Positions 1-63,178 of a stretch of 64,000 bases of DNA are shown here, in pieces. Positions within the stretch are counted from its first letter, which is position 1. Each line of letters opens with the position of its first letter. The stretch lies in the sequence record PQ306573.1, one strand, 5' to 3'. The notes beneath the pieces were generated by a model. It was not told the DNA's origin, did no database searches, and was given only the letters and a program-made list of their open reading frames with translations. Source of the stretch: Escherichia phage vB_EcoM_PTE-Eco05. A program made the translations under genes and the position numbers.

Positions 1-2314
<2,314 letters not shown>

Positions 2315-24029: not shown

Positions 24030-24065
24030 GTTTACATAAGGATGATGGTGTGTTACTATCATCCT
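24030..24065 (+). promoter_or_regulatory. early promoter (GTTTAC-N18-TACTAT) with inverted repeat
   Basis: -35 GTTTAC 24030-24035, -10 TACTAT 24054-24059; inverted repeat AGGATGAT/ATCATCCT flanks the -10. Confidence 0.65.
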
Positions 24066-24093
24066 ATCAAATAAACAACCTCAAGGAAATAAA

Positions 24094-24405: not shown

Positions 24406-24440
24406 TTTACAACACGATAGGACTATGTTATAGTAGTCCT
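24406..24440 (+). promoter_or_regulatory. early promoter cassette (TTTACA-N17-TATAGT with stem-loop)
   Basis: -35 24406-24411, -10 24429-24434; inverted repeat AGGACTA/TAGTCCT 24419-24440. Confidence 0.65.
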
Positions 24441-24466
24441 ATCAAAACAACCAAATGGAACCTAAA

Positions 24467-24732: not shown

Positions 24733-24762
24733 GTATACAAGCCTATAGGGTTATGTTATAGT
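24733..24762 (+). promoter_or_regulatory. early promoter cassette (GTATAC-N18-TATAGT)
   Basis: Same TATGTTATAGTAGTCCTATCAAAACAA core as the 24406 cassette. Confidence 0.55.
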
Positions 24763-24799
24763 AGTCCTATCAAAACAAATGAGTAAATGGAGAAATAAA

Positions 24800-25635: not shown

Positions 25636-25731
25636 AACGTAATTTGCTTTAAGAATTATGTGTTATTATTAATCTACCCTCTATTACCAAAGGTGCTCCC
25701 TCAAGTGCCTTTCATAATAGAAAGTTATTTA

Positions 25732-25806
25732 GGCCCTGTAGCTCAATGGGAGAGCTGTCAGCTCATAACTGATAGGTAGCTGGATCGAAACCAGCCAGGG
25801 CCACCA
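25732..25806 (+). tRNA. tRNA with CAU anticodon (Met, or Ile if lysidine-modified)
   Basis: Hand fold: 7-bp acceptor GGCCCTG/CAGGGCC, D-arm GCTC..GAGC, anticodon loop CTCATAA, T-arm GCTGG-ATCGAAA-CCAGC, encoded CCA. Confidence 0.8.
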
Positions 25807-25812
25807 AACAAA

Positions 25813-25884
25813 CGGTGCATCGTATAAAGGTTATTACGGGGAGCTGTTAACTCCTTTATCTTGGTTCGAGTCCAAGTGCGCCAG
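25813..25884 (+). tRNA. tRNA-Asn (GUU) candidate
   Basis: Anticodon stem GGGAG/CTCCT with loop CTGTTAA; T-arm CTTGG-TTCGAGT-CCAAG; acceptor has one 1-72 mismatch; no encoded CCA. Confidence 0.55.
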
Positions 25885-25929
25885 TAATTTAAACGAAGTA
25901 AATTAAGTGCTCTATCCAAATAATAAATA

Positions 25930-25948
25930 CTCCTATATTTTATAGGAG
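25930..25948 (+). promoter_or_regulatory. hairpin sequestering the Shine-Dalgarno of the endonuclease gene
   Basis: CTCCTATA-TTT-TATAGGAG inverted repeat includes AGGAG 10 nt before ATG 25959. Confidence 0.5.
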
Positions 25949-25958
25949 ATAATTGGTA

Positions 25959-26625
25959 ATGAGCATTTGTAAACATTGTAATATGGAATTTGATATTTCT
26001 AATAAACCTAAAGGATGGATGGCTAACCACACTAGATGGTGTAAATCCAACCCTAAATTGGAATTGTATAAAGAAAGTTCTAAATCAGCCATTGCAGCAA
26101 TGAATAAAGCACGTATAGCTTCAGGTAATTTAAACCAGTATGTTGTATCTAAAAAAGACTGGTGTTCCTGTAGTAATTTCGGAAGAGACTAGACAAAAAT
26201 TGTCAGCCGCTTCATTAGGTAGAGAACACTCTGAGGAATCTAGAATAAAAATATCTAATGCTCTGAAAAAATGGTTGAATGAAAACCCCGATAAACATCC
26301 TTGGAAGAAAAATACAAAATTTAAATCTGTGCCTTGTGAATTTTTGAAATCTAAATTAATAGAAAACGGAATTTCATTTATTGAAGAATACCAACCGGTT
26401 AAAAACCGAGCGTATTGCACGGATATTGCTTTAATAGATAAAAAGATTATTATTGAAGTTAATGGAAACCAACATTACTCCAATCCTAAGAAAAAGATTT
26501 TGGCCCCTTATTATAAAGAACGCCATGATATTATAAAATCATTAGGATGGGAAATATATGAACTTCATTATGCTGAAGTTTATAAAGAAGATATTGTAAA
26601 TAATTTAATTGCCTCTATAGTGTAA
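25959..26625 (+). pseudogene. frameshifted homing-endonuclease-like gene (Zn-finger + NUMOD3-like + DUF559/Vsr-like nuclease domain)
   Basis: Two overlapping frames (25953..26192 and 26140..26625) join at an A6 run near 26151-26156; NUMOD3-like SEETRQKLSAASLG and SEESRIKISNALK; C-terminal IIEVNGNQHY...ERHDIIKSLGWEIYEL resembles DUF559. Confidence 0.6.
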
Positions 26626-26686
26626 TGGATAGCATATAATCATTCTAAGGTTAATGGTGAGAGTTCAAATCTTTCTAGAGGCACCA
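26611..26686 (+). tRNA. tRNA-Arg (UCU)
   Basis: Acceptor GCCTCTA/TAGAGGC, anticodon loop ATTCTAA, T-arm GAGAG-TTCAAAT-CTTTC, encoded CCA; overlaps last 15 nt of the upstream ORF. Confidence 0.75.
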
Positions 26687-26704: not shown

Positions 26705-27049
26705 ATGAAAGGCAATATTTATCTGGTAGTTCATGACTTAACGTTTTATTTTAACGAACGTGAAACAGTTATTTCTCATCGATTGATTAATTCGTTATAT
26801 CAACACGCTGATTACGTTTATTTCCAAAATGAATTTGGCCATTGGAAGTTCATTAAAAATCGTTCTGGGTTAACTAGTTTTGAATACTTTGACCGTAAAG
26901 ACCTTTTAAACGAAATCCCATTGCAACATCGGTTCCAGAAACGCGAATCATTATATTATTGCCGTCATATACCAAACGCCGAATGTGTTAATGAAGCGAT
27001 TAATCTATGGCGTCGGCGTCGAGAGCAAATTGATGGTATGCCAAAATAA
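26705..27049 (+). CDS. hypothetical protein
   Basis: 114 aa from MKGNIYLVVHD after GAGGA; ORF track start 26654 would lie inside the tRNA. Confidence 0.6.
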   Translation: MKGNIYLVVHDLTFYFNERETVISHRLINSLYQHADYVYFQNEFGHWKFIKNRSGLTSFEYFDRKDLLNEIPLQHRFQKRESLYYCRHIPNAECVNEAINLWRRRREQIDGMPK

Positions 27050-27217
27050 GAAGCCGGGTCGCTACCGGTAAGTCGTCGGACTGATGTTCCCTGAGTAAGG
27101 ACTGGTCTTAATAAATCTTTACGATTTGTTATTATCCCCTTATATCACAGCAGAAACGGCGCACCGAATTATCGATTCGAGGAAATATCTTTGCCGTAAG
27201 CCGAGTAGCGTTTTTGA

Positions 27218-27309
27218 CGGAACGTTCGGATATGGTCGAGATATGGCCTTTTAAAAATATTGAGTAGCGTCAACTGCTTAATAACCGGGTTCGAATCCCG
27301 GCGTTTCGT
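27218..27309 (+). ncRNA. tRNA-like structured RNA (long-arm tRNA or T4 stable-RNA-like species)
   Basis: Canonical T-arm CCGGG-TTCGAAT-CCCGG with acceptor pairing CGGAACG/CGTTTCG about 92 nt apart; internal arms could not be folded cleanly by hand. Confidence 0.3.
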
Positions 27310-27360
27310 ACAAACACTTGCCTTAGCAGGTGGAACCCCGACAAGGTTGCCGCAAGGCTT

Positions 27361-27388
27361 AGCCCCTTCCGAAAGGTCGGGGCTTTTT
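27361..27388 (+). terminator. rho-independent terminator (family copy 1, GAAA loop)
   Basis: AGCCCCTTCC-GAAA-GGTCGGGGCT followed by TTTTT. Confidence 0.7.
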
Positions 27389-27433
27389 GGCATAATAATA
27401 AATAGATAAGTTAATTAACTTAGGAAAAGCAAC

Positions 27434-27898
27434 ATGAAATCATACGCTGAATTTTTGACTGAACAATCTAGTTCAGATGTAAAAGCCGCTGCGATTGCAG
27501 CAATTCAAGCAGGTAAATATTCTTACAAAGACGCCTCTGATGAAGAACGTTTCCGTTTTATTAGAGATTTTAAAGCCGAAGGTTTTACTAATGCTAATAC
27601 TGTTAGCCGAGTTTTTAAAAGCCTAGCTGCATCAGGTGAATTGTTCCAGAAAGCTACAGGTAAAGCACCTGCGCCAAAAACAGACCCTAAAGCAGCTCAA
27701 GAAAAAAATATCGCCAAAGGAATTATTTCTAAGTATGAAGCAATTCTTAAAGAGCTTTTAGTAATCAAAACAGAAGGCCAGAAACTGGCACGAGCACATA
27801 GCTTCAAAGATAATCCTCACGCTCATAGCCTTGAGTATGTTGAAGATATCCAAAAACTTATTAAAGACCGTATCTGGTCTGCTAAACAAATTAAATAA
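27434..27898 (+). CDS. internal protein-like (capsid-targeting N-terminus)
   Basis: Begins MKSYAEFLTEQ; 154 aa; Ala/Lys-rich. Confidence 0.65.
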   Translation: MKSYAEFLTEQSSSDVKAAAIAAIQAGKYSYKDASDEERFRFIRDFKAEGFTNANTVSRVFKSLAASGELFQKATGKAPAPKTDPKAAQEKNIAKGIISKYEAILKELLVIKTEGQKLARAHSFKDNPHAHSLEYVEDIQKLIKDRIWSAKQIK

Positions 27899-27904
27899 TA
27901 GAAT

Positions 27905-27931
27905 GCCCCTTCCTTATGGTTGGGGCCTTTT
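27905..27931 (+). terminator. rho-independent terminator (family copy 2)
   Basis: GCCCCTTCCTTATGGTTGGGGC then CTTTT, directly after the stop at 27898. Confidence 0.7.
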
Positions 27932-27964
27932 GGTATCTAGGGCATAAAAATATTTCATAAAGAT

Positions 27965-27993
27965 GTTTACTTCTTCTAAGGACATGATACTAT
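27965..27993 (+). promoter_or_regulatory. early promoter (GTTTAC-N17-TACTAT)
   Basis: Upstream of ATG 28022. Confidence 0.6.
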
Positions 27994-28021
27994 AGACTTA
28001 TCAACCATAGAGGAAAATGTT

Positions 28022-28525: not shown

Positions 28526-28554
28526 TGTACAAACGCCAAGGATGGTGGTACTAT
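28525..28554 (+). promoter_or_regulatory. early promoter (ATGTAC-N18-TACTAT)
   Basis: Upstream of ATG 28585; shares the GGTACTATAGACTTATCAAC core with the 27965 promoter. Confidence 0.5.
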
Positions 28555-28584
28555 AGACTTATCAACTACAGAGGAGTAAACAAA

Positions 28585-28749
28585 ATGACTACTTTAATTA
28601 TTTGGTTCGATGAAAATGAAGAAACATACTGTGTGAATATTGGTGAAAGTCCAATGCCTGAATTTGAATCCTCGGATAAAAACTCTGTTGTATCTTGGGC
28701 TGAAGGTTATAAAGCAGCTAAAGGTGACGTTGAAATAATTTACATCTAA
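28585..28749 (+). CDS. small hypothetical protein
   Basis: 54 aa from MTTLIIWFDENEE after AGAGGAG. Confidence 0.55.
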   Translation: MTTLIIWFDENEETYCVNIGESPMPEFESSDKNSVVSWAEGYKAAKGDVEIIYI

Positions 28750-28767
28750 GTAAGTTTATGTTATAGT
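28739..28767 (+). promoter_or_regulatory. early promoter cassette (TTTACA-N17-TATAGT)
   Basis: TATGTTATAGTAGTCCTATCAAA core again; precedes ATG 28796. Confidence 0.6.
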
Positions 28768-28795
28768 AGTCCTATCAAATCAAGAGGAAAACAAA

Positions 28796-29023
28796 ATGGC
28801 TAAAGTTAGTATTGATGTCGTTGATTATGAATACACAGAAGAAGTTATTCGCAACCGCCACCCTGAAGTTCGTATCGATTCAGTCCAAGATTCCAAGTTC
28901 TGGACAACTGAGCTTAATCTGAGTGGTCCTTATGAAGCTGTTAAGAAGTTCATGGTTGAAGAATACTGCGAAGGCATGCACCCCGAAGACGCCAAGTTTT
29001 ATGTCAATTTGATTAAAAAATAA
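28796..29023 (+). CDS. small hypothetical protein
   Basis: 75-aa ORF. Confidence 0.6.
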   Translation: MAKVSIDVVDYEYTEEVIRNRHPEVRIDSVQDSKFWTTELNLSGPYEAVKKFMVEEYCEGMHPEDAKFYVNLIKK

Positions 29024-29070
29024 TTTACAAACTCTTGAGAGCAGAGTATAATGCTCTCATTGGATAATAA
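29023..29070 (+). repeat. 48-bp exact repeat copy 1 (promoter cassette)
   Basis: ATTTACAAACTCTTGAGAGCAGAGTATAATGCTCTCATTGGATAATAAA, identical to 57616..57663. Confidence 0.85.
29024..29059 (+). promoter_or_regulatory. early promoter (TTTACA-N17-TATAAT) with palindrome around -10
   Basis: -35 29024-29029, -10 29047-29052; TGAGAGCA/TGCTCTCA inverted repeat; part of a 48-bp exact repeat. Confidence 0.7.
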
Positions 29071-29093
29071 ACCACCAATTGAAAGGTAATAAT

Positions 29094-29687
29094 ATGAACA
29101 CACTGAAGAAACTTGTCGAATTCATCCGCACTAAACTGGGTACTGCTATGGCTAAAAATCTGACTGTCGAAGAACAGTATAACGCAGCTGCAGATAAGTT
29201 GATTACCCAAATCAAAGAACTAAAAACGGCTTCTGTTAAATCTATTAATGAAGAAAAACGTATTCGCGAACTTGTTAATGAAAAGAACAAGCAAGCCGCT
29301 TCTAAGGAACGTGAAATTCGTAAGCTCCTGGCTGAAGGACAAGATGTTACCATGCATGCTAAGCTTGGTCTTCTGTATCGTCGAACTGCCGAACAACTTA
29401 ATACAAAAGCTGACGGGTATGCCGCTATGCGAATTGAAATTGCTCGTAAGGTGGTTGAACTTGATGATGCTCGTCAGAATCTGGCAATCAAACTCGAATA
29501 CATTCGTGAAACTCGAGCAGCTAATGCCCTTGGTATCTCTACGGCTGACGATGTAATTGAAATCGCTGCACTGACTAAGGTTGATATCGAAGACACTCTG
29601 ACTCGTGTTGAAACGTTCAATGGCACTCAGCCCGGCGTTGAAACCACTTCTGCTGATGTACAAGAATATATTAACTCTTTGAAATAA
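29094..29687 (+). CDS. coiled-coil protein (possible PspA/IM30-like architecture)
   Basis: 197 aa from [10 protein letters not shown]; long heptad-rich helical sequence; codon usage richer in CTG/CGT than neighbours. Confidence 0.6.
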
Positions 29688-29736
29688 AATAATACGGAGG
29701 ACTCCGGTCCTCCTTTTGGATAATAAAGGAGTTAAC

Positions 29737-30333: not shown

Positions 30334-30535
30334 GCCATGGGCATACGAATACAAACGTAAATTAATCCCAAACGAAGTACTATTTGGCCCTATTTTAGCT
30401 TTAGCATTTTTAATCTTTATGATTATAGGAGCTGTTTTAGATTCTAGTGAAGTTATATCGTCTGATGCAGTGTTTTTACTTATAGCCGGGTCGTTTATTG
30501 TGCCATTTTTATTAATGCCTATTAATTGGGTGTGA
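30302..30535 (+). CDS. small membrane protein
   Basis: 77 aa; two transmembrane-like segments; start region duplicates that of the 30784 gene. Confidence 0.5.
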   Translation: MSKPTLYMPIKPWAYEYKRKLIPNEVLFGPILALAFLIFMIIGAVLDSSEVISSDAVFLLIAGSFIVPFLLMPINWV

Positions 30536-30694
30536 TATTGGTACCAAGGCCGTCATCACAGAGCCCGATTAAGAGAATGGAAAGTTCAGTGCGCAAAAGC
30601 CCAGTATGATGAAGCTGTTAAAAAGTATGAATATGACGAAGCCATGGAATTCGTTAAGGAGATAAGATGCAAAAGCCTGAACTGAATTTATGCT

Positions 30695-30724
30695 GTTTAC
30701 GCTTCTCAAATGATTAGTTATAAT
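30695..30724 (+). promoter_or_regulatory. early promoter (GTTTAC-N18-TATAAT)
   Basis: In the 250-bp intergenic region upstream of 30784. Confidence 0.6.
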
Positions 30725-30783
30725 GAACTCCTAACTAGACGTGAAAATGAAACAATCGAAAACTTTATTAAGGAATGTAGAAA

Positions 30784-31089
30784 ATGAGTAAGATTATCGA
30801 AATTAAAGTACCAGAGTTTAATGATGCCAAATCCGCTTCAGATGCAATTTATAAACTTCTGAATCAAGCTGAACGTATCGAAGAAGAAGCAACAAAGATC
30901 GCAGACCAATATGCCGTACCATTTTCTGTAGGTGATTATGGTAGCGGTCGTACTTATTATCCTAAGGGTGAAATCGTATCCCAGTGGATGAAAAATGAAA
31001 TTGAAAATAATGGTGGTGATGTTAAGCGTGAAGGTAATGGTTACGTTATTACTGAAGGTGCTTGGGTTTCGTCTTCTGCGTTGTGCTAA
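30784..31089 (+). CDS. small protein, paralog 1 (C-terminal GAWVSSSALC)
   Basis: 101 aa; shares a C-terminal G-W-V-[SA]-S-S-x-x-C motif with the next two ORFs. Confidence 0.65.
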   Translation: MSKIIEIKVPEFNDAKSASDAIYKLLNQAERIEEEATKIADQYAVPFSVGDYGSGRTYYPKGEIVSQWMKNEIENNGGDVKREGNGYVITEGAWVSSSALC

Positions 31090-31582: not shown

Positions 31583-31612
31583 GTTTACAACAAGATAGGG
31601 CTATGTTATAGT
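31583..31612 (+). promoter_or_regulatory. early promoter cassette (GTTTAC-N18-TATAGT)
   Basis: GGGCTATGTTATAGTAGTCCTATCAAA core. Confidence 0.6.
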
Positions 31613-31640
31613 AGTCCTATCAAATTAAATGGAGTCCACA

Positions 31641-32877: not shown

Positions 32878-32907
32878 GTTTACACAATTATAGGATTATG
32901 TTATAGT
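32878..32907 (+). promoter_or_regulatory. early promoter cassette (GTTTAC-N18-TATAGT)
   Basis: GGATTATGTTATAGTAAGTCCTATTAAAACA core. Confidence 0.6.
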
Positions 32908-32936
32908 AAGTCCTATTAAAACATGAGGAGAATATT

Positions 32937-34654: not shown

Positions 34655-35102
34655 GAAAAATAAAGCGAAAGAACTATCAGCCGGTATTATTTTCCTTACC
34701 GAAGATAAAGAATTATTCATGGGGCGTGTAACTGGTTCTCGTCCTAAAGGTGCATTAGCTCATCGGTGGGATATTCCTAAAGGACGTGTCGAGCCCGGTG
34801 AATCTCCTATTGAAGCCGCTATTCGCGAATGCGAAGAAGAAACTGGGTTTACACAATATGACCCTGCCTTCCTGAAAGACCTAGGTGAACATCATTACTC
34901 AGACAATAAGAATATACATCTGTTCCTATATACCATCCCTGTAGAGCACGAGCAATTCAGAAACAGTATTTGTAATTCATATCATACATTCCCAGACGGA
35001 CGTCAGATTCCTGAATTTGATGCATTCGCTTTAATTAAACCTTCTCAATGGGAATATGTGATGGGCAAATCATTATATAAGGTGCTCACTACCCTACTAT
35101 AA
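34644..35102 (+). CDS. nudE: Nudix hydrolase (NudE / e.1-like)
   Basis: Nudix box GRVEPGESPIEAAIRECEEETG; 152 aa; immediately upstream of e. Confidence 0.88.
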   Translation: MMSKKNKAKELSAGIIFLTEDKELFMGRVTGSRPKGALAHRWDIPKGRVEPGESPIEAAIRECEEETGFTQYDPAFLKDLGEHHYSDNKNIHLFLYTIPVEHEQFRNSICNSYHTFPDGRQIPEFDAFALIKPSQWEYVMGKSLYKVLTTLL

Positions 35103-35136
35103 GTAATAAATACCTCCTATAAACATGGGAGGTATT

Positions 35137-35625
35137 ATGAATATATTTGAAATGCTTCGTAATGACGAAGGTCTTAGACTGACTTTATACAAAGACACTG
35201 AAGGCTTTTGGACGATTGGCATAGGCCATTTGGTAACAAAGAACCCGTCTTTAGCCGTAGCTAAAGCTGAACTTGACAGAATGATCGGTCGTAAATGCAA
35301 CGGTACAATTACCCTTGATGAGGCTGAAAAGCTATTTAACGAAGACGTTGATAAAGCCGTTCGCGGAATCTTGGGTAATGCTAAACTTAAACCGGTATAT
35401 GATTCTTTAGATGCGGTTCGTCGATGTGCATTGGTCAATATGGTCTTCCAAATGGGTGTAGCAGGCGTCGCTGGTTTTACTAATTCTCTTCGTATGCTTC
35501 AACAGAAACGTTGGGATGAAGCGGCAGTAAATCTAGCCCAATCTAAATGGTATCGTCAGACACCTAATCGCGCGAAACGCGTAATCTCAACATTTAAAAC
35601 AGGAACTTGGAAAGCGTATATATGA
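35137..35625 (+). CDS. e: endolysin (T4 lysozyme)
   Basis: 162 aa, [32 protein letters not shown]..., close to recalled T4 lysozyme. Confidence 0.96.
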
Positions 35626-35904: not shown

Positions 35905-35957
35905 GTTTACTTCCTCCAAGGACTTTGATACTATACATTCATCAACTACTTGGAGGA
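35905..35957 (+). promoter_or_regulatory. early promoter with anti-Shine-Dalgarno spacer (TCCTCCAAG ... CTTGGAGGA)
   Basis: -35 GTTTAC 35905-35910, -10 TACTAT 35929-35934; 9-bp inverted repeat whose 3-prime arm is the denV ribosome-binding site. Confidence 0.6.
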
Positions 35958-35961
35958 AATT

Positions 35962-36645: not shown

Positions 36646-36675
36646 GTTTACGCTTAAGTATTAATATGGTATAAT
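36646..36675 (+). promoter_or_regulatory. early promoter (GTTTAC-N18-TATAAT)
   Basis: Upstream of ATG 36706. Confidence 0.6.
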
Positions 36676-36705
36676 TACTCTATCAAAACAAACAAGGAAA
36701 CAAAA

Positions 36706-37628: not shown

Positions 37629-37741
37629 CAGTTTACTTTCTCCTAGAATTGTGATAGTATATTCATAATTACTTGGAGTGGTAAATACAGAAATGGACAA
37701 TTCATGCGCCACGGAATGGCCCAACCTAAAAGAGAAACTAA

Positions 37742-39654: not shown

Positions 39655-39703
39655 GTTTACTTCTCCTCTAGTTGTGTTACTATAGACCTGTCAACTAGAG
39701 GAG
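39655..39703 (+). promoter_or_regulatory. early promoter with anti-Shine-Dalgarno spacer (CCTCTAGTTG ... CAACTAGAGG)
   Basis: -35 GTTTAC 39655-39660, -10 TACTAT 39678-39683; 10-bp perfect inverted repeat 39665-39674 / 39692-39701, 3-prime arm overlaps GAGGAG of regB. Confidence 0.65.
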
Positions 39704-39711
39704 AAATCAAA

Positions 39712-42847: not shown

Positions 42848-42854
42848 TTTACTA

Positions 42855-42881
42855 GCCCCTTCCTTATGGTTGGGGCTTTTT
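42855..42881 (+). terminator. rho-independent terminator (family copy 3)
   Basis: GCCCCTTCCTTATGGTTGGGGC + TTTTT directly after rI. Confidence 0.7.
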
Positions 42882-42882
42882 G

Positions 42883-42890
42883 TATAAATA
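42883..42890 (+). promoter_or_regulatory. T4-type late promoter TATAAATA
   Basis: Exact TATAAATA 25 bp upstream of ATG 42915. Confidence 0.65.
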
Positions 42891-42914
42891 TCCTTGTAAA
42901 CTAAGAGAGGATAT

Positions 42915-43472
42915 ATGAAATTTTTAAAATATGTAAGTTGGGTTGTTCTTGTTCCTATAGATTGGATCGCAGCGATTTTAGCAATTATTCTAGCACCATT
43001 TGTAGTTCCATTCCATAGTGAAAAAACCGGTAAACTACCTTATGGCTTTGACTGGATGATGACTTACGATAATCCTATCGATGGTGACCGCGGCCATGTT
43101 GAACGTTGGTCTAAAATACGTAAAATTCCTGTTATAGGTAAATATGCTCAACGCGTAGCTTGGCTATGGCGCAACAAAGCATATAATTTTTCGTATCATG
43201 TTTTAGGTCGCGAAGCTTCATCAGAATGGCACTATAAAGGCAACGCCGAAACTAAATCTGGATCTCCTGATCCGGCACATCATGGATATCTTTTAGTTTG
43301 GAACGAGTCGGCATGGGGATTATTCGCTGCTATACCTTATCTTAAGGTTGGTGGTATTACATTTTATCTGCGTGTTTACTGTGGTTGGAAACTTAAGAGT
43401 CTTTTGAGTCGTCCTATTCCACGCGCAATGCTTTCATTCCATATCAACCCTTTACGATATTACAAAAACTAA
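42915..43472 (+). CDS. membrane-anchored protein (rI.-1 position)
   Basis: 185 aa; N-terminal transmembrane helix then soluble domain. Confidence 0.7.
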   Translation: MKFLKYVSWVVLVPIDWIAAILAIILAPFVVPFHSEKTGKLPYGFDWMMTYDNPIDGDRGHVERWSKIRKIPVIGKYAQRVAWLWRNKAYNFSYHVLGREASSEWHYKGNAETKSGSPDPAHHGYLLVWNESAWGLFAAIPYLKVGGITFYLRVYCGWKLKSLLSRPIPRAMLSFHINPLRYYKN

Positions 43473-43477
43473 TCAAA

Positions 43478-43505
43478 GCCCCTTCCGAAAGGTTGGGGCT
43501 TTTTT
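43478..43505 (+). terminator. rho-independent terminator (family copy 4, GAAA loop)
   Basis: GCCCCTTCC-GAAA-GGTTGGGGC + TTTTTT. Confidence 0.7.
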
Positions 43506-43515
43506 GCATTTAGCA

Positions 43516-43566
43516 GTTTACTTCTCCTCAGGTTGTGTTATAGTAGACCTTACTTACTAGAGGAGA
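43516..43566 (+). promoter_or_regulatory. early promoter with anti-Shine-Dalgarno spacer
   Basis: -35 GTTTAC 43516-43521, -10 TATAGT 43539-43544; spacer TCTCCT complementary to AGGAGA 43561-43566. Confidence 0.6.
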
Positions 43567-43571
43567 ACGTT

Positions 43572-43965: not shown

Positions 43966-43994
43966 TTTACATCTTGATAGGACTATGGTATAGT
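43965..43994 (+). promoter_or_regulatory. early promoter cassette (GTTTAC-N18-TATAGT)
   Basis: TAGGACTATGGTATAGTAGTCCTACCAAAACAA core. Confidence 0.6.
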
Positions 43995-44022
43995 AGTCCT
44001 ACCAAAACAAATGGAGAACAAA

Positions 44023-46247: not shown

Positions 46248-46249
46248 TA

Positions 46250-46267
46250 AGGGCCTTCGGGCCCTTT
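46250..46267 (+). terminator. hairpin GGGCC-UUCG-GGCCC + UUU after the NTase gene
   Basis: Perfect 5-bp GC stem, UUCG loop, short U-run. Confidence 0.5.
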
Positions 46268-46294
46268 AGGGGGTGAAAATATTTTTAAAAAGTA

Positions 46295-46323
46295 GTGTAC
46301 ATGCTTTTAGGATATGTTATTAT
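46295..46323 (+). promoter_or_regulatory. early promoter (GTGTAC-N17-TATTAT)
   Basis: ATGTTATTATAGACCTATC core shared with the 46575 and 48052 promoters. Confidence 0.55.
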
Positions 46324-46353
46324 AGACCTATCAAAACAAGAGGAGAAAACAAA

Positions 46354-46574: not shown

Positions 46575-46603
46575 GTTTACTTTTGCTTTAAACATGTTAT
46601 TAT
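46575..46603 (+). promoter_or_regulatory. early promoter (GTTTAC-N17-TATTAT)
   Basis: Upstream of ATG 46643. Confidence 0.6.
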
Positions 46604-46642
46604 AGACCTATCGAAACGAAATGAGTAAATTTGGAGAATAAA

Positions 46643-48051: not shown

Positions 48052-48080
48052 GTTTACAAGGTCTATGGTTATGTTATTAT
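48052..48080 (+). promoter_or_regulatory. early promoter (GTTTAC-N17-TATTAT) with AGGTCT/AGACCT inverted repeat
   Basis: Upstream of ATG 48108. Confidence 0.6.
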
Positions 48081-48107
48081 AGACCTATCAACTACTGGAG
48101 GTAAAAC

Positions 48108-48635: not shown

Positions 48636-48697
48636 ACGCTTTACCCAAGGACGGGTTATAATGGTTTTGAGTTCCAATTCAATCTGAGGAAATAGTT

Positions 48698-49693: not shown

Positions 49694-49722
49694 TGTACAA
49701 CCAAGGATGGTTGGAGTATAAT
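49693..49722 (+). promoter_or_regulatory. early promoter (ATGTAC-N18-TATAAT)
   Basis: Upstream of ATG 49751. Confidence 0.5.
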
Positions 49723-49750
49723 GAACCTATCTTAACGAGAGGAAAATATT

Positions 49751-52135: not shown

Positions 52136-52306
52136 ATGCAAGTTAAATTACTGTACCGTTTATTAAAAAATGGCAAACATGATTGGTATTTGCTTATTAA
52201 AACCGATCCGAATTTTTTCTCTGGACAACCATTTACAGTTCGTCCTACTAAACGTCAGCTTCGCAAAGCTAAACGTTCTCATCGTAACTTTTATAACGTT
52301 TACTAA
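52136..52306 (+). CDS. small basic protein
   Basis: 56 aa from MQVKLLYRLL. Confidence 0.5.
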   Translation: MQVKLLYRLLKNGKHDWYLLIKTDPNFFSGQPFTVRPTKRQLRKAKRSHRNFYNVY

Positions 52307-52308
52307 AT

Positions 52309-52316
52309 TATAAATA
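52309..52316 (+). promoter_or_regulatory. T4-type late promoter TATAAATA for gene 49
   Basis: Exact TATAAATA 30 bp upstream of ATG 52346; followed by CCCTTA...TAAGGG inverted repeat 52317-52339. Confidence 0.65.
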
Positions 52317-52345
52317 CCCTTATCTATTTAAGGTAAGGGTTTATC

Positions 52346-52819
52346 ATGCTATTATCAGGCGCAAAATATAAAGAAGAAAAACAAAAATTTTATGATGCAC
52401 AGAATGGTAAGTGTCCTATTTGCCGCCGTGAATTAGACCCTGATGTTCAAGGTAACCATCTTGACCACGACCACGAATTAAACGGGCCAAAAGCCGGTAG
52501 AGTTCGTGGATTACTCTGTAATCTGTGCAATGCAGCAGAAGGCCAAATGAAGCATAAGTTTAATCGTTCCGGACTTAAAGGACGTGATGTCGACTACCTC
52601 GAATGGCTTGAAGCTCTTCTTGCTTATTTGAAACAAGATTATTCTGATAATAATATCCATCCTAATTTTGTTCCAGACAAAACTAAAGAGTTCTCAAGAC
52701 TAGGTAAAGAGGAAATGATGGCTGAGATGCTTCAAAGAGGATTTGAATATAATGAATCTGATACTAAAACACAATTAATAGCTTCATTCAAAAAGCAGCT
52801 TAGAAAGAGTTTAAAATGA
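52346..52819 (+). CDS. 49: endonuclease VII (Holliday junction resolvase)
   Basis: 157 aa, MLLSGAKYKEEKQKFYDAQNGKCPICRREL...HLDHDHELNGPKAG..., close to recalled T4 gp49. Confidence 0.95.
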   Translation: MLLSGAKYKEEKQKFYDAQNGKCPICRRELDPDVQGNHLDHDHELNGPKAGRVRGLLCNLCNAAEGQMKHKFNRSGLKGRDVDYLEWLEALLAYLKQDYSDNNIHPNFVPDKTKEFSRLGKEEMMAEMLQRGFEYNESDTKTQLIASFKKQLRKSLK

Positions 52820-54633
52820 AAATTGAAAAAGAAATTGAAGGACTGATTCATAAAACTAATAAAGACCTTTTAAACGAGAATGCTAATAAAGATTCTCGTG
52901 TTTTTCCAACTCAACGGGACCTTATGGCTGGTATTGTGTCTAAGCACATTGCCAAAAATATGGTCCCGTCTTTTATTATGAATGCGCATGAAAGCGGAAT
53001 CATTCACATGCATGATATTGATTATTCTCCTGCTCTTCCATTTACTAATTGTTGTTTAGTAGATTTAAAAGGAATGCTTGAGAATGGATTTAAATTAGGC
53101 AATGCTCAAATTGAAACGCCTAAATCGATTGGTGTTGCTACTGCAATTATGGCACAAATTACTGCACAAGTTGCTTCACACCAGTATGGCGGAACTACAT
53201 TTGCGAATGTAGATAAAGTACTTTCTCCTTATGTTAAACGCACCTATGCAAAACATATTGAGGATGCAGAAAAATGGCAAATCGCTGATGCGTTGAATTA
53301 TGCTCAATCTAAAACAGAAAAAGACGTATACGATGCATTCCAAGCTTACGAATATGAAGTAAATACTCTCTTTAGTTCAAACGGGCAAACACCTTTTGTA
53401 ACAATTACATTTGGTACAGGAACTGACTGGACTGAACGAATGATTCAGAAAGCAATTCTGAAAAATCGTATTAAAGGTCTTGGTCGTGATGGGATAACTC
53501 CTATTTTTCCTAAACTTGTTATGTTTGTTGAAGAAGGTGTTAATCTTTATAAAGATGATCCGAACTATGATATTAAACAACTTGCGTTAGAATGTGCAAG
53601 CAAAAGAATGTATCCTGACATTATTTCGGTTAAGAATAATAAAGCTATTACCGGTTCTTCAGTTCCTGTTTCTCCGATGGGTTGTCGTAGTTTCTTGAGC
53701 GTATGGAAAGATTCGACTGGTAATGAAATTCTTGATGGACGTAATAATCTTGGTGTTGTAACACTGAATCTTCCTCGCATCGCGTTAGATTCTTATATTG
53801 GAACACAGTTCAATGAACAGAAATTTGTTGAGCTATTTAACGAACGAATGGACCTGTGTTTTGAAGCCTTGATGTGTAGAATTAGTTCTTTAAAGGGTGT
53901 TAAAGCTACTGTTGCTCCTATTCTTTACCAAGAAGGTGCATTCGGTGTTCGTCTTAAACCCGATGACGATATAATTGAGTTATTTAAAAACGGTAGAAGT
54001 TCAGTTTCCCTAGGATACATTGGTATTCACGAATTGAATATTCTTGTCGGTCGTGATATTGGACGAGAAATTTTGACTAAAATGAATGCTCATCTTAAAC
54101 AGTGGACTGAAAGAACTGGATTTGCTTTTAGTTTATATTCTACTCCTGCTGAAAACCTTTGTTATCGCTTCTGTAAACTTGATACAGAAAAATATGGAAG
54201 CGTAAAAGATGTTACCGATAAAGGTTGGTACACTAATAGTTTCCATGTTTCAGTAGAAGAAAATATTACTCCGTTTGAAAAGATTTCTCGTGAAGCACCA
54301 TATCATTTCATTGCGACCGGCGGTCACATTTCTTATGTTGAACTTCCTGATATGAAAAATAACTTAAAGGGCCTTGAGGCTGTATGGGATTATGCTGCAC
54401 AACATTTAGATTATTTTGGTGTTAACATGCCGGTAGATAAATGTTTTACATGTGGAAGTACCCATGAAATGTCTCCTACCGAAAACGGATTTGTTTGTTC
54501 AGTTTGTGGAGAAAGTGATCCTAAAAAGATGAACACAATAAGAAGAACATGCGGATATCTTGGAACTCCTAGCGTTGTTCCATGGAATTTAGGTAAAATG
54601 AAAGAAATGGTAAAACGAGTAAAACATGCATAG
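52816..54633 (+). CDS. nrdD: anaerobic ribonucleoside-triphosphate reductase
   Basis: 605-aa uninterrupted ORF; C-terminal zinc-ribbon Cys cluster (CFTCGS...CSVCGE) and glycyl-radical region. Confidence 0.93.
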   Translation: MKIEKEIEGLIHKTNKDLLNENANKDSRVFPTQRDLMAGIVSKHIAKNMVPSFIMNAHESGIIHMHDIDYSPALPFTNCCLVDLKGMLENGFKLGNAQIETPKSIGVATAIMAQITAQVASHQYGGTTFANVDKVLSPYVKRTYAKHIEDAEKWQIADALNYAQSKTEKDVYDAFQAYEYEVNTLFSSNGQTPFVTITFGTGTDWTERMIQKAILKNRIKGLGRDGITPIFPKLVMFVEEGVNLYKDDPNYDIKQLALECASKRMYPDIISVKNNKAITGSSVPVSPMGCRSFLSVWKDSTGNEILDGRNNLGVVTLNLPRIALDSYIGTQFNEQKFVELFNERMDLCFEALMCRISSLKGVKATVAPILYQEGAFGVRLKPDDDIIELFKNGRSSVSLGYIGIHELNILVGRDIGREILTKMNAHLKQWTERTGFAFSLYSTPAENLCYRFCKLDTEKYGSVKDVTDKGWYTNSFHVSVEENITPFEKISREAPYHFIATGGHISYVELPDMKNNLKGLEAVWDYAAQHLDYFGVNMPVDKCFTCGSTHEMSPTENGFVCSVCGESDPKKMNTIRRTCGYLGTPSVVPWNLGKMKEMVKRVKHA

Positions 54634-55456
54634 GTATTATATAATTTATAAAATAACAAATATAATTAATTCAAAGGAATATATCGGTGCTATGCGCACC
54701 GATAACATAAATGATGGTTATATGGGGTCAGGAACATTGATTCGTGCCGCTTTATTAAAATATGGTAGAAAAAATTTTAATAAAGAAATTTTACATGTTT
54801 TTGATAATGAAAAACAAATGTATGATAAAGAAGCTGAACTTGTAACCGAAGAGTATTGTCTAAAAGAAAATACATATAATATTAAACCTGGTGGAAAAGG
54901 TGGAACTGCCTATGAACAGACACTTGAACATCGCCGTAAAAATAGTTTAGCAAATAAAGGTAAAAAGAGAACAGAAGAAACTAAAATAGCTATTTCACGT
55001 GCTTTAAAGAAATATAAACGTACGCCAGAGCATCAAGCAAATTTAAATAAAGCCGTAAGCATAGCTATGAAGCGAAAAGATGTTAGAAGTAAATTAGCTG
55101 GAGAGCGGTCTGAGAAAGATAAATTATCTATATCAAACGGTGTTAAAAAATATTACAATTCTTTGAGTGAAGAAGAACGCGAACTTCATCGCAAGCGAAT
55201 TATTGAAGGTAAAAAGAATTCTCCCATGTCATTGGAATCTAGACAAAAGCTTTCAAAAGCTTTAAAAGGGCTTCAAGTTGGTTCAAAAAATCCAATGTAT
55301 GGAAAAATTTCTCCAACTAGCAAAACCGTTTCAGTTGACGGTATTAAATATGATTCAATTAAAAAGTGCTCAAATGCCATAAAAGTTTCTAGACATCTTA
55401 TACTAAAACGCTGTAATTCTACTGATGAAGCTTGGAAAAATTGGATATTATTATGA
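54626..55456 (+). CDS. free-standing GIY-YIG homing endonuclease (seg-like)
   Basis: N-terminal YIIYKITN...KEYIGAM GIY-YIG motif; repeated NUMOD3-like ETKIAISRALK / RQKLSKALKG; overlaps nrdD end and nrdG start. Confidence 0.85.
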   Translation: MHRYYIIYKITNIINSKEYIGAMRTDNINDGYMGSGTLIRAALLKYGRKNFNKEILHVFDNEKQMYDKEAELVTEEYCLKENTYNIKPGGKGGTAYEQTLEHRRKNSLANKGKKRTEETKIAISRALKKYKRTPEHQANLNKAVSIAMKRKDVRSKLAGERSEKDKLSISNGVKKYYNSLSEEERELHRKRIIEGKKNSPMSLESRQKLSKALKGLQVGSKNPMYGKISPTSKTVSVDGIKYDSIKKCSNAIKVSRHLILKRCNSTDEAWKNWILL

Positions 55457-56557: not shown

Positions 56558-56724
56558 CCAGGTGCCGCCTGGTCTTCTTTATCTCATTTCTAATATAATC
56601 CATTGGAATCTTCACTTCACTATCTCCTTGGGCCCCTCTCAAATAAAAAATATTTTCATAAAACAGTTTTACATCCTCAATAGATGTGTTAAGATTAACA
56701 CCATCTACCGCAGAGGAAAACAAA

Positions 56725-57412: not shown

Positions 57413-57613
57413 ATGAATCCTGAATCTATGTTATCGCAAAAGCTTCGTGAAGAACGTGCCGAATTCTTTGCCAATATGAAACTCAACGGCGTTGAGGATG
57501 AAGACTTCTTACGCTGGTTCTGGATTTACAAATACAAAGAATGCCAGCACGCTGTACTACTGACTTGTGCAGTTATGTACGAAGGCTGGAAAGGCGCTAA
57601 AAAGTTCGGATAA
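57413..57613 (+). CDS. small hypothetical protein
   Basis: 66-aa ORF. Confidence 0.5.
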   Translation: MNPESMLSQKLREERAEFFANMKLNGVEDEDFLRWFWIYKYKECQHAVLLTCAVMYEGWKGAKKFG

Positions 57614-57615
57614 CG

Positions 57616-57663
57616 ATTTACAAACTCTTGAGAGCAGAGTATAATGCTCTCATTGGATAATAA
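57616..57663 (+). repeat. 48-bp exact repeat copy 2 (promoter cassette)
   Basis: Identical to 29023..29070. Confidence 0.85.
57617..57652 (+). promoter_or_regulatory. early promoter (TTTACA-N17-TATAAT), second copy of the 48-bp repeat
   Basis: -35 57617-57622, -10 57640-57645; sequence identical to 29023-29070. Confidence 0.7.
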
Positions 57664-57682
57664 AATAACCGAGGAAAATAAT

Positions 57683-58015
57683 ATGTCTACTAAAATCAAA
57701 AACGTAGTTAATTCTTTCGCTTTCGATAAAGTTGTTGCTCTTCTGGAATCCGGCAATATTGTTACTCCTCAAGTTCTTGACGCATGGGAATTCCGTCTTT
57801 ATGAAATCATGCAAAAACACGACCAGAAAATTGGACGTAATTCTATTCGCGAAATTCTAGTACAATATATTCTTTCTGAATTTGACGTTGCTGCATTTGG
57901 TGTTGAATCTAAAGCTTATCAGAAACATGAAATCTCTGAAAAGACTATCCGTCGTATGAAAAATCAGCGTAAGAAAAAATTCGTTGACCTGAAAATTGTT
58001 AAGGCGGCAAAATGA
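57683..58015 (+). CDS. hypothetical protein
   Basis: 110 aa from MSTKIKNVVNS after GAGGA. Confidence 0.6.
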   Translation: MSTKIKNVVNSFAFDKVVALLESGNIVTPQVLDAWEFRLYEIMQKHDQKIGRNSIREILVQYILSEFDVAAFGVESKAYQKHEISEKTIRRMKNQRKKKFVDLKIVKAAK

Positions 58016-58239: not shown

Positions 58240-58394
58240 AACTATCTTGAATCGCTATAACCGAAGAAAAGTTTGGTGAATTTTAAGTCGACAACTTTAT
58301 GAAAGTTACGTATCTTTGATAGTATCTCGTGCTTTAAGATAGGTCTCTAAATATTATGATATAATAGACCTATGAATTGAGCCAAGAGGTACTT

Positions 58395-59696: not shown

Positions 59697-59870
59697 ATGA
59701 CGAACATCCCGACTTCTGAAAATTTCGATAAAATCCGTAAAGGCAAAGCAGAAAGAATGAGACGTTTTAAAGAGTCTTATGATAAAGCTAAAGCCGAAGG
59801 AACTATTACATACAAGCCCATTCGATTTAAAAGTTCAAATGAGCCTCTGTACGGTGTACTATGTGGATAG
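59697..59870 (+). CDS. small basic protein (unannotated 57-aa ORF)
   Basis: MTNIPTSENFDKIRKGKAERMRRFKESYDK...; GAGGTG upstream; followed by a terminator. Confidence 0.45.
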   Translation: MTNIPTSENFDKIRKGKAERMRRFKESYDKAKAEGTITYKPIRFKSSNEPLYGVLCG

Positions 59871-59893
59871 GAACTCTTCGGAGTTCCTTTTTT
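59870..59893 (+). terminator. rho-independent terminator
   Basis: GGAACTC-TTCG-GAGTTCC followed by TTTTTT. Confidence 0.8.
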
Positions 59894-59939
59894 GCTTTAT
59901 AAACGGATGATAGAATGAATTAACTAATGAGGAAATAAT

Positions 59940-63124: not shown

Positions 63125-63178
63125 ACGCTTTAACACGATGTGGTTATAATGACCACATCAAATTAAATGGAGAACAAC

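Follow-up and report, generated by a model that had tools for sequence, protein, structure and literature searches.

Predicted hairpin-bearing early promoters, including an exact 49-bp duplicate, in the hyperplastic region of an RB69-like Escherichia phage

In T4-type phages, small and mostly unknown genes differ between near-identical isolates and are probably what determines host range and the ability to withstand defence systems. The way such genes move is still debated, and the idea that promoter-early stem-loops (PeSLs) are involved rests on three phage pairs. PeSLs were described in RB49/phi1, where the stem-loop lies most commonly in the -35 to -10 interval or across the -10 element (Arbiol et al. 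2010, PMC2839356), and were extended to PST/T4 and nt-1/KVP40, with nt-1 carrying comparable elements, the PmSLs, that are based on Mot boxes (Comeau et al. 2014, PMC4122927). In T4, short homology is enough for recombination (cited in PMC2839356), and 57 early promoters have been predicted in RB69 (Nolan et al. 2006, PMC1524935). Here we consider a stretch of 64,000 nucleotides (the window, to which all positions refer unless stated otherwise) from Escherichia phage vB_EcoM_PTE-Eco05 (PQ306573.1), which contains an exact 49-bp duplicate. This repeat very probably represents two hairpin-bearing sigma-70 early promoters within a PeSL-type set of about 27 promoters and 8 terminators that would have taken part in shuffling by portable homology.

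The window is 96-97% identical to Mosigvirus (RB69-like) genomes (moha, JK45, APCEc01, ATK47/48 and PHB12) and colinear with the RB69 region 53/5 ... 46. Judged by these alignments, it belongs to an RB69-like (Mosigvirus) T4-type phage, and positions 24-64 kb make up its predicted hyperplastic early region. A preliminary description of this DNA had pointed out a 48-bp exact duplicate; the duplicate exists and is one base longer than stated, i.e., 29023-29071 equals 57616-57664 over 49 bp. Since a 32-nucleotide core of the repeat, allowing up to 3 mismatches, had no match in 100 shuffles, the duplication is not attributable to chance. The two copies are arranged as follows:

29023..29071, + strand: cassette copy 1, between frd.3 (28796-29023) and e.6 (29094-29687).
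Parts of copy 1, + strand: predicted -35 TTTACA at 29024-29029; -10 TATAAT at 29047-29052; hairpin arms 29036-29043 and 29052-29059; z score -3.71, tool fold z -3.61; covariation.
57616..57664, + strand: cassette copy 2, between 55.3 (57413-57613) and 55.2 (57683-58015).
Parts of copy 2, + strand: predicted -35 at 57617-57622; -10 at 57640-57645; hairpin arms 57629-57636 and 57645-57652; z score -3.47.

With its TTTACA-N17-TATAAT architecture, the repeat matches the sigma-70 consensus at 11/12 positions, the best match within 24-44 kb, and a host-type promoter is annotated at this cassette in ATK47/48. The region upstream is A/T-rich. An 8-bp inverted repeat (TGAGAGCA / TGCTCTCA) places the -10 in the loop and the 3' arm, and the cassette folds at -13.8 kcal/mol (z -3.6). 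The identity of the copies takes in the unconstrained spacer and 20 nucleotides 3' of the -10, and the proteins encoded 3' of them are unrelated (e.6 is without a Pfam family and 55.2 is DUF7570).

The 49-mer is present in 160 phage records, at 1-3 places in each, the names being those of Escherichia, Shigella, Salmonella or unassigned phages. An exact scan of IMG/VR viral contigs for the 32-nucleotide core returned no match, and all comparison thus rests on GenBank phage records. The four relatives compared have copy 1 unchanged or with one base altered. Between copy 2 and copy 1 there are 7 differences in RB69, 5 in ATK48 and a similar number in moha, compared with 0/49 in the window, and the RB69 differences include two compensatory stem pairs. 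In 348Ecol098PP and phi25-307, copy 2 equals copy 1 from position 5 on, but its -35 reads TGCACA; 348Ecol098PP also has a third copy, of a 34-nucleotide core, 5' of ndd. Outside the genus, the same promoter stands 5' of 55.2 in JS98 (Dhakavirus; stem GGGACCA/TGGTCCC) and in Klebsiella phage Marfa (GAGGAC/GTCCTC), and 5' of e.6 in JS98 (GAGGACA/TGTCCTC) and in Tequatrovirus KIT03 (GGGAGTA/TACTCCC). The cassette of e.6, 55.2 and ndd is, by these comparisons, an old family with two or three loci in four genera.

Within this family, the e.6 and 55.2 cassettes of JS98 share only 34/51 positions, while the e.6 cassette of KIT03 shows approximately 5 differences from the 55.2 cassette of JS98 in the first 49 positions (author's alignment count), mostly as compensatory stem pairs. 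The dissimilarity of the two JS98 loci and the closeness of KIT03 e.6 to JS98 55.2 imply more than one round of exchange or conversion of the cassette between the e.6 and 55.2 loci. What gave the two copies in the window their perfect identity is accordingly the latest homogenisation, by recombination or gene conversion, in an old family, rather than a fresh duplication. The earlier suggestion that recent recombination or strong selection lies behind the duplicate is supported to this extent. Copy 1 was at one stage considered a recent copy of the 55.2 promoter, as first suggested by its being closer to the 55.2 cassettes of Marfa and JS98 than to JS98 e.6; this was dropped because KIT03 has the same cassette type at e.6, about 5/49 off JS98 55.2.

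The wider set to which the repeat belongs was compiled for 24-64 kb, plus strand. Promoters were curated by a pattern scan, followed by inspection of every spacer of at least 30 nucleotides, with the early-type pattern being T[TGA]TAC-N16-17-TAnnnT, then a Shine-Dalgarno sequence (SD) and ATG. In agreement with the more than 20 early promoters first proposed, the curated set comprises 22 early-type and 5 MotA-box (middle-type) predicted promoters together with 8 intrinsic terminators. All cassettes lie in spacers of 46-170 nucleotides, from the upstream stop to the downstream SD/ATG, and the stop codon of the upstream gene usually abuts the -35. A generic sigma-70 consensus scan of 24-44 kb found no enrichment (76 matches vs 66.8+-8 in shuffles), which means that the promoter signal consists of the T4-type pattern together with the intergenic, SD-proximal position.

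Breakpoints in gene content, defined as indels or replacements of at least 40 bp, were taken from chained BLAST alignments of the window with ATK48, 348Ecol098PP, RB69, phi25-307, AV117 and moha. There were 69 unique breakpoints, 18 of them at -20 to +50 of a -35 (4.8% of the sequence) and 4 in terminators (0.8%), with 27 at other gene junctions (10.6%) and 20 inside genes (84%). Junctions carrying a promoter or terminator held a breakpoint in 21/30 cases, compared with 16/57 for the other junctions (Fisher p=2.4e-4, odds ratio 6). Together with three promoter-to-promoter recombinants, these counts bear out the proposal that PeSL-like cassettes mark indel boundaries.

The recombinant junctions can be read directly. 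In 6/6 relatives, nrdC.5 (approximately 1 kb) has on either side an exact 27-bp copy of the promoter TACAACCAAGGATGGTTGGAGTATAAT; in the window nrdC.5 is missing and a single copy is present, at 49696-49722. At 32884-32890, ATK48 and AV117 have an extra open reading frame (ORF) between two promoters, in place of which the window shows a single hybrid promoter whose two parts meet at the -35. The interval between 55.3 and copy 2 contains, again in 6/6 relatives, a 296-bp module made of a promoter with its own hairpin (GATAGGAAGA/TCTTCCTATC) and RB69ORF075c; its junction falls at the -35 of copy 2 (57616-57623), and about 15 other records share the junction seen in the window. Deletion of ORF075c from the window was considered and rejected, because JS98 and RB9 also have 55.3 adjoining 55.2; as they lack ORF075c, the window probably shows the ancestral arrangement, and the module was probably inserted in the RB69 lineage. 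Finally, a DUF7338 gene (42915-43472), present in the window alone, stands between two terminator copies, AGCCCCTTCC-loop-GGTTGGGGCTTTTT (33-nucleotide repeats), and at this site 6/6 relatives lack the gene and have one terminator, of either loop type. The loops of the two terminators around the gene (42854-43509) differ, being CTTATGG and CGAAAG, and the same pair with the loop order reversed surrounds a 154-aa ORF at 27434-27898. Further members of this terminator family, at 27361 and 27904, likewise coincide with breakpoints. To judge from the aligned junctions, three of these events are clean promoter-to-promoter recombinations, one exactly at copy 2, and the fourth is a terminator-to-terminator one. 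Homologous recombination of the phage would use 30-60 bp of shared cassette sequence as portable homology, and a small gene module would move together with its own promoter.

It is possible, though we consider it doubtful, that the cassettes are instead passive boundaries, with recombination occurring anywhere and selection keeping intact genes with their own promoter, in the manner of moron-like modules. A number of observations count against an active part for the cassettes. Gene junctions overall hold 39% of the breakpoints in 10.6% of the sequence, and breakpoints are equally dense within the windows of junctions that have cassettes and of those that lack them (0.94 vs 0.97 per 100 nucleotides). 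With stop codons directly next to the -35, a breakpoint at the -35 looks the same as one at the end of the gene. At equal densities, a hot spot of recombination and a filter by selection are not told apart by the statistics, and the enrichment seen per junction could stem from how long the junctions are and from selection favouring intact genes. Moreover, 9/30 cassette junctions, copy 1 among them, show no breakpoint relative to the six relatives, and 16 cassette-free junctions hold breakpoints. Other indels, such as homing-endonuclease-like genes at 26140-26625 and 54626-55456, are not cassette-borne, and several further in-frame or gene-boundary events occurred without repeats. It should also be noted that the promoter and gene lists come from our own regular expressions and heuristics, not from annotation, and that orthologous and paralogous copies are not independent samples. 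What speaks for the cassettes as sites of exchange is that four junctions fall inside sequence repeated on both sides of the indel, the signature of a homologous crossover, the repeats being the 27-bp promoter (nrdC.5), -35 hexamers (32884 and 57616) and the 33-nucleotide terminators (DUF7338). PeSL-to-PeSL circles have, in addition, been found experimentally in RB49/phi1 (Arbiol et al., PMC2839356).

Many of the promoters had been said to carry inverted repeats flanking the -10, and this is the case. When the 62 nucleotides after each -35 were compared with dinucleotide shuffles, 12/27 promoters had a better hairpin at p<0.05 (mean z -1.70, Stouffer Z -8.8), and the tool folds of cassette hairpins gave z scores from -3.6 to -7.1. 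At least 9 unrelated arm sequences share one register (the promoter copies not being independent): the spacer holds the 5' arm, the 3' arm begins at the end of the -10 and reaches approximately to where transcription is predicted to start, and the -10 is at the junction of loop and 3' arm. The MotA-box promoters at 58329 and 63125 are arranged alike. An alignment of 12 members of the cassette family, from the window, RB69, ATK48, moha, 348Ecol098PP, JS98, Marfa and KIT03, has 94.8% of stem cells paired, compared with 81.7+-1.9 in shuffles (0/500 reach the observed value); changes on both sides occur in 5/8 stem pairs, and every slid register pairs at most 54%. That stems stay paired while their sequence changes is good evidence that pairing, not sequence, is kept.

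The role of this hairpin is the weakest step of the explanation. Because it ends at about the predicted transcript start, the RNA of the cassette itself would lack it. It may act on read-through transcripts from upstream promoters, as an attenuator or in 3'-end protection, and in a subset whose 3' arm extends to the SD, translation from read-through RNA might be silenced, as in T4 genes e and 49. In the 49-bp cassette, the 3' arm does not cover the SD/AUG, i.e., there is no geometry sequestering the ribosome-binding site. Spacers pair with the SD region at 27966, 35906, 39656 (regB), 43517, 56668 and, weakly, 46296, and the extended arms at 39656 and 35906 reach beyond SD/anti-SD. A promoter of the regB design also occurs at an unrelated locus, 25812-25860 of 348Ecol098PP, 3' of motB-like genes, where the spacer CTCCTCTGG of an early promoter is paired to CCAGAGGAG at the SD and the difference from regB, A-T to G-C, is compensatory. 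In Tequatrovirus RB9, the 55.3/55.2 spacer has no promoter, and a canonical terminator, GGGCTTCGGCCC-TTTTT, occupies the hairpin position just 5' of the shared GGATAATAAAAT. Compared with the window (385-438 of the RB9 stretch with 57611-57685), this spacer has the intrinsic terminator GGGCTTCGGCCCTTTTT where Mosigvirus, Dhakavirus and Marfavirus have the promoter hairpin.

A role at the RNA level is favoured by the RB9 terminator at the hairpin position, by the predicted absence of the hairpin from the cassette's own RNA, and by the sense-strand folds and U.G pairing: the plus-strand fold is more stable than the minus-strand fold in 65 vs 26 distinct promoters, and in two family members pair 13-36 is U.G, the counterpart of which on the opposite strand would be A.C. 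Tentatively, then, the -10-embracing hairpin may be a selected single-strand (most likely RNA) insulator that makes each small early gene a plug-and-play unit. If so, promoter, insulator and recombination homology would be one 50-nucleotide object, which would explain both the free shuffling of modules and the keeping of the stem by compensatory change across genera, and the SD-masked subset would be translated only from its own promoter. Several results call for caution. About half of the promoters are without a significant hairpin; the 49-bp cassette lacks the feature of an intrinsic terminator (a G+C-rich hairpin followed by a U-run), its stem being followed by ATTGGATAAT; SD-masking promoters number 6 vs 4.5 expected under a spacer-shuffle null (p=0.25, the CT-rich spacer composition itself being the signal); and stem mismatches (9 G.T vs 5 A.C, p=0.42) do not settle the strand.

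The inverted repeat might instead act as DNA, either as an extruded hairpin or cruciform aiding promoter opening or as a structure-specific target (e.g., of endonuclease VII) that starts recombination. The constant position of the -10 at the junction of loop and 3' arm would suit such a role, both strands of the cassette fold well (-13.8 and -12.4 kcal/mol), and the mismatch counts favour neither strand significantly. We nevertheless regard it as unlikely, given the strand bias of the folds, the U.G pairs and the true RNA terminator at the same position in RB9. Stems of 7-8 bp with 8-nucleotide loops, moreover, extrude poorly as cruciforms.

Mutation alone could also imitate compensatory change, and this weighs against reading the covariation as selection. 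Ripley and co-workers reportedly described quasi-palindrome template switching in T4, in which one arm is copied onto the other during replication, and such correction of quasi-palindromes would require no function. Each stem mismatch is indeed a single transition-type intermediate (G.T or A.C), and close relatives have perfect arms of quite different sequence. Set against this, four genera and three loci show the palindrome in a constant register relative to the -10, this one position is taken by about ten unrelated arm sequences from promoter to promoter, and mutation alone leaves the promoter location and register unexplained. Little probability therefore attaches to template switching as the source of the compensatory changes.

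The similarity of the cassettes also goes beyond what promoter function demands. With a null in which the columns of the 22 early promoters were permuted (2000 trials, position composition kept and linkage destroyed), 14 promoter pairs were at least 65% identical over 69 aligned columns, compared with 0.62 expected (permutation maximum 5); 13 such pairs remained when copy 2 was left out. This excess over permuted columns indicates that the promoters form sub-families by descent or exchange. Repeat families D1-D9 and D13 were distinguished among the cassettes, D13 being the 49-bp duplicate. The two extended cores quoted in the preliminary description were recovered, TATGTTATAGTAGTCCTATCAAAACAA at 24424, 24752, 28757, 31602 and 43984 with 0-2 mismatches (the copy at 32.9 kb having a 1-nucleotide insertion; D6) and ATGTTATTATAGACCTATC exactly at 46314, 46594 and 48071. 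A start-region motif, (T/A)CCTATCAA, is common to most promoters, with or without a complementary 5' arm, and the hairpin thus looks like an addition onto a conserved start region.

That the promoters should be alike only through a strong T4-type early consensus (UP, -35 GTTTAC, TGn, -10, start region), with the 49-bp identity a convergence, is very improbable. The T4 early promoter consensus does extend beyond the hexamers (PMC2988021; PMC1524935), and the CCTATCAA start motif is found in most promoters, even hairpin-less ones. However, the pair excess was obtained at fixed column frequencies, so that consensus alone, which had been named as the possible refutation, fails to account for the similarity; the same 34-49 nucleotides recur at three loci, the unconstrained spacer included; and orthologous copies elsewhere have other stems, i.e., promoter function does not dictate stem sequence. 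Hardly tenable, lastly, is an operator at which a dimeric DNA-binding regulator would turn early promoters off: dyad symmetry placed over the -10 does agree with the classic operator position, and the shut-off of T4 early promoters is not fully understood (PMC3014915), but the arms differ wholly between promoters and change by compensatory pairs in orthologues where an operator would conserve sequence, and it was rejected on this covariation.

The remaining predicted promoters and terminators are the following:

24031..24075, + strand: early promoter; hairpin AGGATGAT/ATCATCCT over the -10, z -3.06; breakpoint at the -35 (24037).
24406..24450, + strand: early promoter; 10-11 bp hairpin GATAGGACTA/TAGTCCTATC, z -5.43, tool fold z -7.09.
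24734..24778, + strand: early promoter (TATACA), same family as 24406; weak G.U-rich stem; breakpoints 24745 and 24794.
25644..25690, + strand: MotA-box promoter 5' of the tRNA cluster; abutted (25637) by a 511-bp insertion in 6/6 relatives.
27361..27393, + strand: intrinsic terminator of the family AGCCCCTTCC-loop-GGTYGGGGCTTTTT; repeat D10; breakpoint 27388-27395.
27904..28010, + strand: terminator (27904-27936), then early promoter (-35 at 27966); classic composite; breakpoints 27959 and 28013.
28526..28570, + strand: early promoter (TGTACA); breakpoint 28508.
28739..28783, + strand: early promoter of the TAGTCCTATC family, without 5' arm and hairpin; breakpoint 28770.
30696..30740, + strand: early promoter (TTTACG-N17-TATAAT); 250-bp indel ending 7 nucleotides 5' of the -35.
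31584..31628, + strand: early promoter; hairpin GATAGGGCTA/TAGTCCTATC with one G.T, z -3.99.
32879..32925, + strand: hybrid early promoter; in ATK48/AV117 an extra ORF between two promoters, crossover at the -35.
35906..35961, + strand: early promoter; spacer after the -35, TTCCTCCAAG, pairs with the SD region CTTGGAGGAA, z -4.10.
36647..36705, + strand: early promoter (TTTACG-N17-TATAAT), no hairpin; breakpoints 36713 and 36728.
37632..37680, + strand: early promoter; CTCC.../...GGAG hairpin, z -1.86, p=0.043; breakpoints 37680 and 37703.
39656..39711, + strand: regB early promoter; 13-14 bp hairpin of the spacer TCTCCTCTAGTTG with the SD region CAACTAGAGGAGA, z -4.75, tool fold z -4.15; breakpoint 39651.
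42854..42886, + strand: terminator, left direct repeat of the DUF7338 gene; repeat D10.
43477..43571, + strand: terminator (43477-43509, right direct repeat), then early promoter (-35 at 43517) with anti-SD spacer.
43966..44010, + strand: early promoter; hairpin GATAGGACTA/TAGTCCTACC, z -2.69; orthologues show A-T to G-C covariation with both intermediates present.
46249..46340, + strand: UUCG-type terminator (46249-46267), then early promoter (-35 TGTACA at 46296); breakpoints 46249 and 46337.
46576..46620, + strand: early promoter of the TATAGACCTATC family; breakpoint 46594.
48053..48097, + strand: early promoter; hairpin AGGTCTAT/ATAGACCT, z -2.26.
48636..48680, + strand: MotA-box promoter, ACGCTTTA-N12-TATAAT.
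49694..49740, + strand: early promoter (TGTACA-N17-TATAAT); site of nrdC.5 in six relatives.
56558..56724, + strand: terminator (56558-56580) and early promoter (-35 at 56668); nested hairpin reaching the SD, z -3.92; breakpoint 3' of it at the ATG (56726).
58329..58375, + strand: MotA-box promoter; 8-bp inverted repeat ATAGGTCT/AGACCTAT around the -10; breakpoint 58315.
59870..59935, + strand: UUCG-type terminator, then MotA-box promoter 5' of gene 47.
63125..63170, + strand: MotA-box promoter; hairpin GATGTGGT/ACCACATC over the -10, z -3.09, tool fold z -4.53; breakpoints 63113 and 63181.

The intrinsic terminators thus comprise one family (27361, 27904, 42854 and 43477) and others at 29694, 46249, 56558 and 59870.

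As regards the surrounding genes, positions 1 to approximately 20.5 kb carry late genes on the minus strand, the last ones being genes 5 and 53, and from approximately 20.5 to 64 kb all genes are on the plus strand in RB69 order: 4, 2, 3, 1, 57A, 57B, internal-protein genes, tRNAs, frd.3, e.6-e.2, nudE, e, denV, vs.x, regB, vs, tk, rI, mobD.x, nrdC.x, pin, 49, nrdD, nrdG, 55.x, 55, a-gt.x, 47, 46, 45.2 and rpbA. The early region between genes 57B and 46 corresponds to the T4 tRNA/e/tk/nrdC/55.x hyperplastic region. Six small genes (starts 24094, 24467, 35622, 36382, 36706 and 37326) open with MKTYQEFI(A/S)E, the capsid-targeting sequence of T4 internal proteins, which accounts for repeat family D4, and several of these genes lie in the most variable segments (24.0-24.8 kb and 36.4-37.7 kb). 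The tRNA cluster at 25732-26686 encodes Met, Asn and Arg tRNAs (starts 25732, 25813 and 26611); six Mosigvirus relatives have Met and Arg only, with 75-140 bp between them, and JS98 has Arg, Asn and Met. Between the Asn and Arg tRNAs, the ORF at 26140-26625 encodes a 161-aa protein of the homing-endonuclease type (NUMOD3/DUF559, Vsr-like). A 276-aa GIY-YIG/NUMOD3/I-TevI-type (Seg-like) homing endonuclease gene (54626-55456) lies between nrdD and nrdG; it is present in moha and missing from 5/6 relatives, with its breakpoints (54569 and 55453) away from cassettes.

Two long spacers deserve mention. The one at 27047-27360, after a 131-aa ORF and up to the terminator at 27361, corresponds to the rnaC (species 1 RNA) annotation of ATK48 and has no Rfam family; a search of the whole window with Rfam 15 at gathering score gave the three tRNAs only, and nothing at the cassette sites. 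The other, at 30533-30786, is a 248-nucleotide geneless stretch that follows e.5/e.4-like ORFs and precedes the next gene; in four relatives this part (e.3/e.4 region) is 250 bp longer, and the stretch seems to be the remnant of a deletion ending 7 nucleotides before the -35 at 30696. In addition, late-promoter-like TATAAATA is found inside hairpins covering the ribosome-binding sites of gene e (35100-35139) and gene 49 (52304-52348), which, by their sequence, are the known T4 translational-control structures, conserved here.

These observations extend the PeSL idea to RB69-like phages, represented by about 160 public genomes, and provide concrete junctions for it, namely the 27-bp promoter repeats around nrdC.5, the -35 of copy 2 for ORF075c and the terminator repeats around the DUF7338 gene. 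The compensatory changes across four genera are sequence-level evidence that the hairpin itself is kept. For phage engineering, the cassettes represent natural landing pads with their own promoter.

Compared with systems described before, the promoters have the features of T4-type early promoters, namely a GTTTAC -35, TGn, the -10 and a C-rich stretch from -3 to -1, and, like the RB69 set, stand 5' of both conserved early genes and novel ORFs (PMC1524935); a term search of the main text of that report found no mention of inverted repeats, hairpins or palindromes. The gene modules resemble the morons of tailed phages in being single genes with their own promoter and terminator inserted between conserved genes. 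Unlike morons or modular linkers, they are bounded by homologous cassettes repeated in one genome, which points to legitimate and not illegitimate recombination. The hairpins of T4 e, 49, soc and I-TevI have the 5' arm upstream of an internal promoter start and the 3' arm over the SD (PMC3014915), so that only the promoter-proximal transcript is translatable, and the promoters at 39656 (regB), 35906, 43517, 27966 and 56668 share this geometry, though not in a number significant against shuffled spacers. However, the known cases use late promoters to delay expression, whereas the internal promoter here is early, and the effect would thus be insulation from read-through, not timing.

The closest counterparts are the PeSLs themselves. 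As in RB49/phi1 (PMC2839356), a sigma-70 type early promoter with an AT-rich upstream region and a stem-loop overlapping the -10 lies between a stop codon and the next SD/ATG; the elements are concentrated in hyperplastic regions, recur over lengths of tens of bases and border ORFs that vary among close relatives, with crossovers inside the element. They differ in that the -35 is TTTACA/TGTACA here and TTGACA there, the stems contain A/T and vary between copies where those of RB49/phi1 read GGGG...CCCC, the genus is Mosigvirus, and MotA-box (middle) promoters are also hairpinned. Promoter and terminator activity and mini-circles were shown experimentally for RB49/phi1; the elements of the window are predicted from sequence. 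The promoter consensus TTTACW-N17-TAYWAT is that of the PST/T4 PeSLs, with which the window also shares composites of terminator and promoter near indels, including the ndd region and the internal-protein locus (PMC4122927). The PST stem-loop is drawn just 5' of the promoter and thus matches the composites at 27904, 43477, 46249 and 56558, not the -10-embracing hairpins, and neither covariation analysis nor cross-locus homogenisation was reported in that study.

The PeSL features that can be read from DNA, namely promoter, stem-loop, intergenic position, copies conserved beyond the hexamers and association with indels, are all present in the window. This is a published phenomenon, found now in a genus where it had not been described before; the finding is well documented and not surprising to a T4 specialist. 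What is new relative to the earlier systems is the genus, together with the covariation seen in four genera and at three loci, the homogenisation between loci, the equivalent position of hairpin and terminator, and the terminator-to-terminator insertion.

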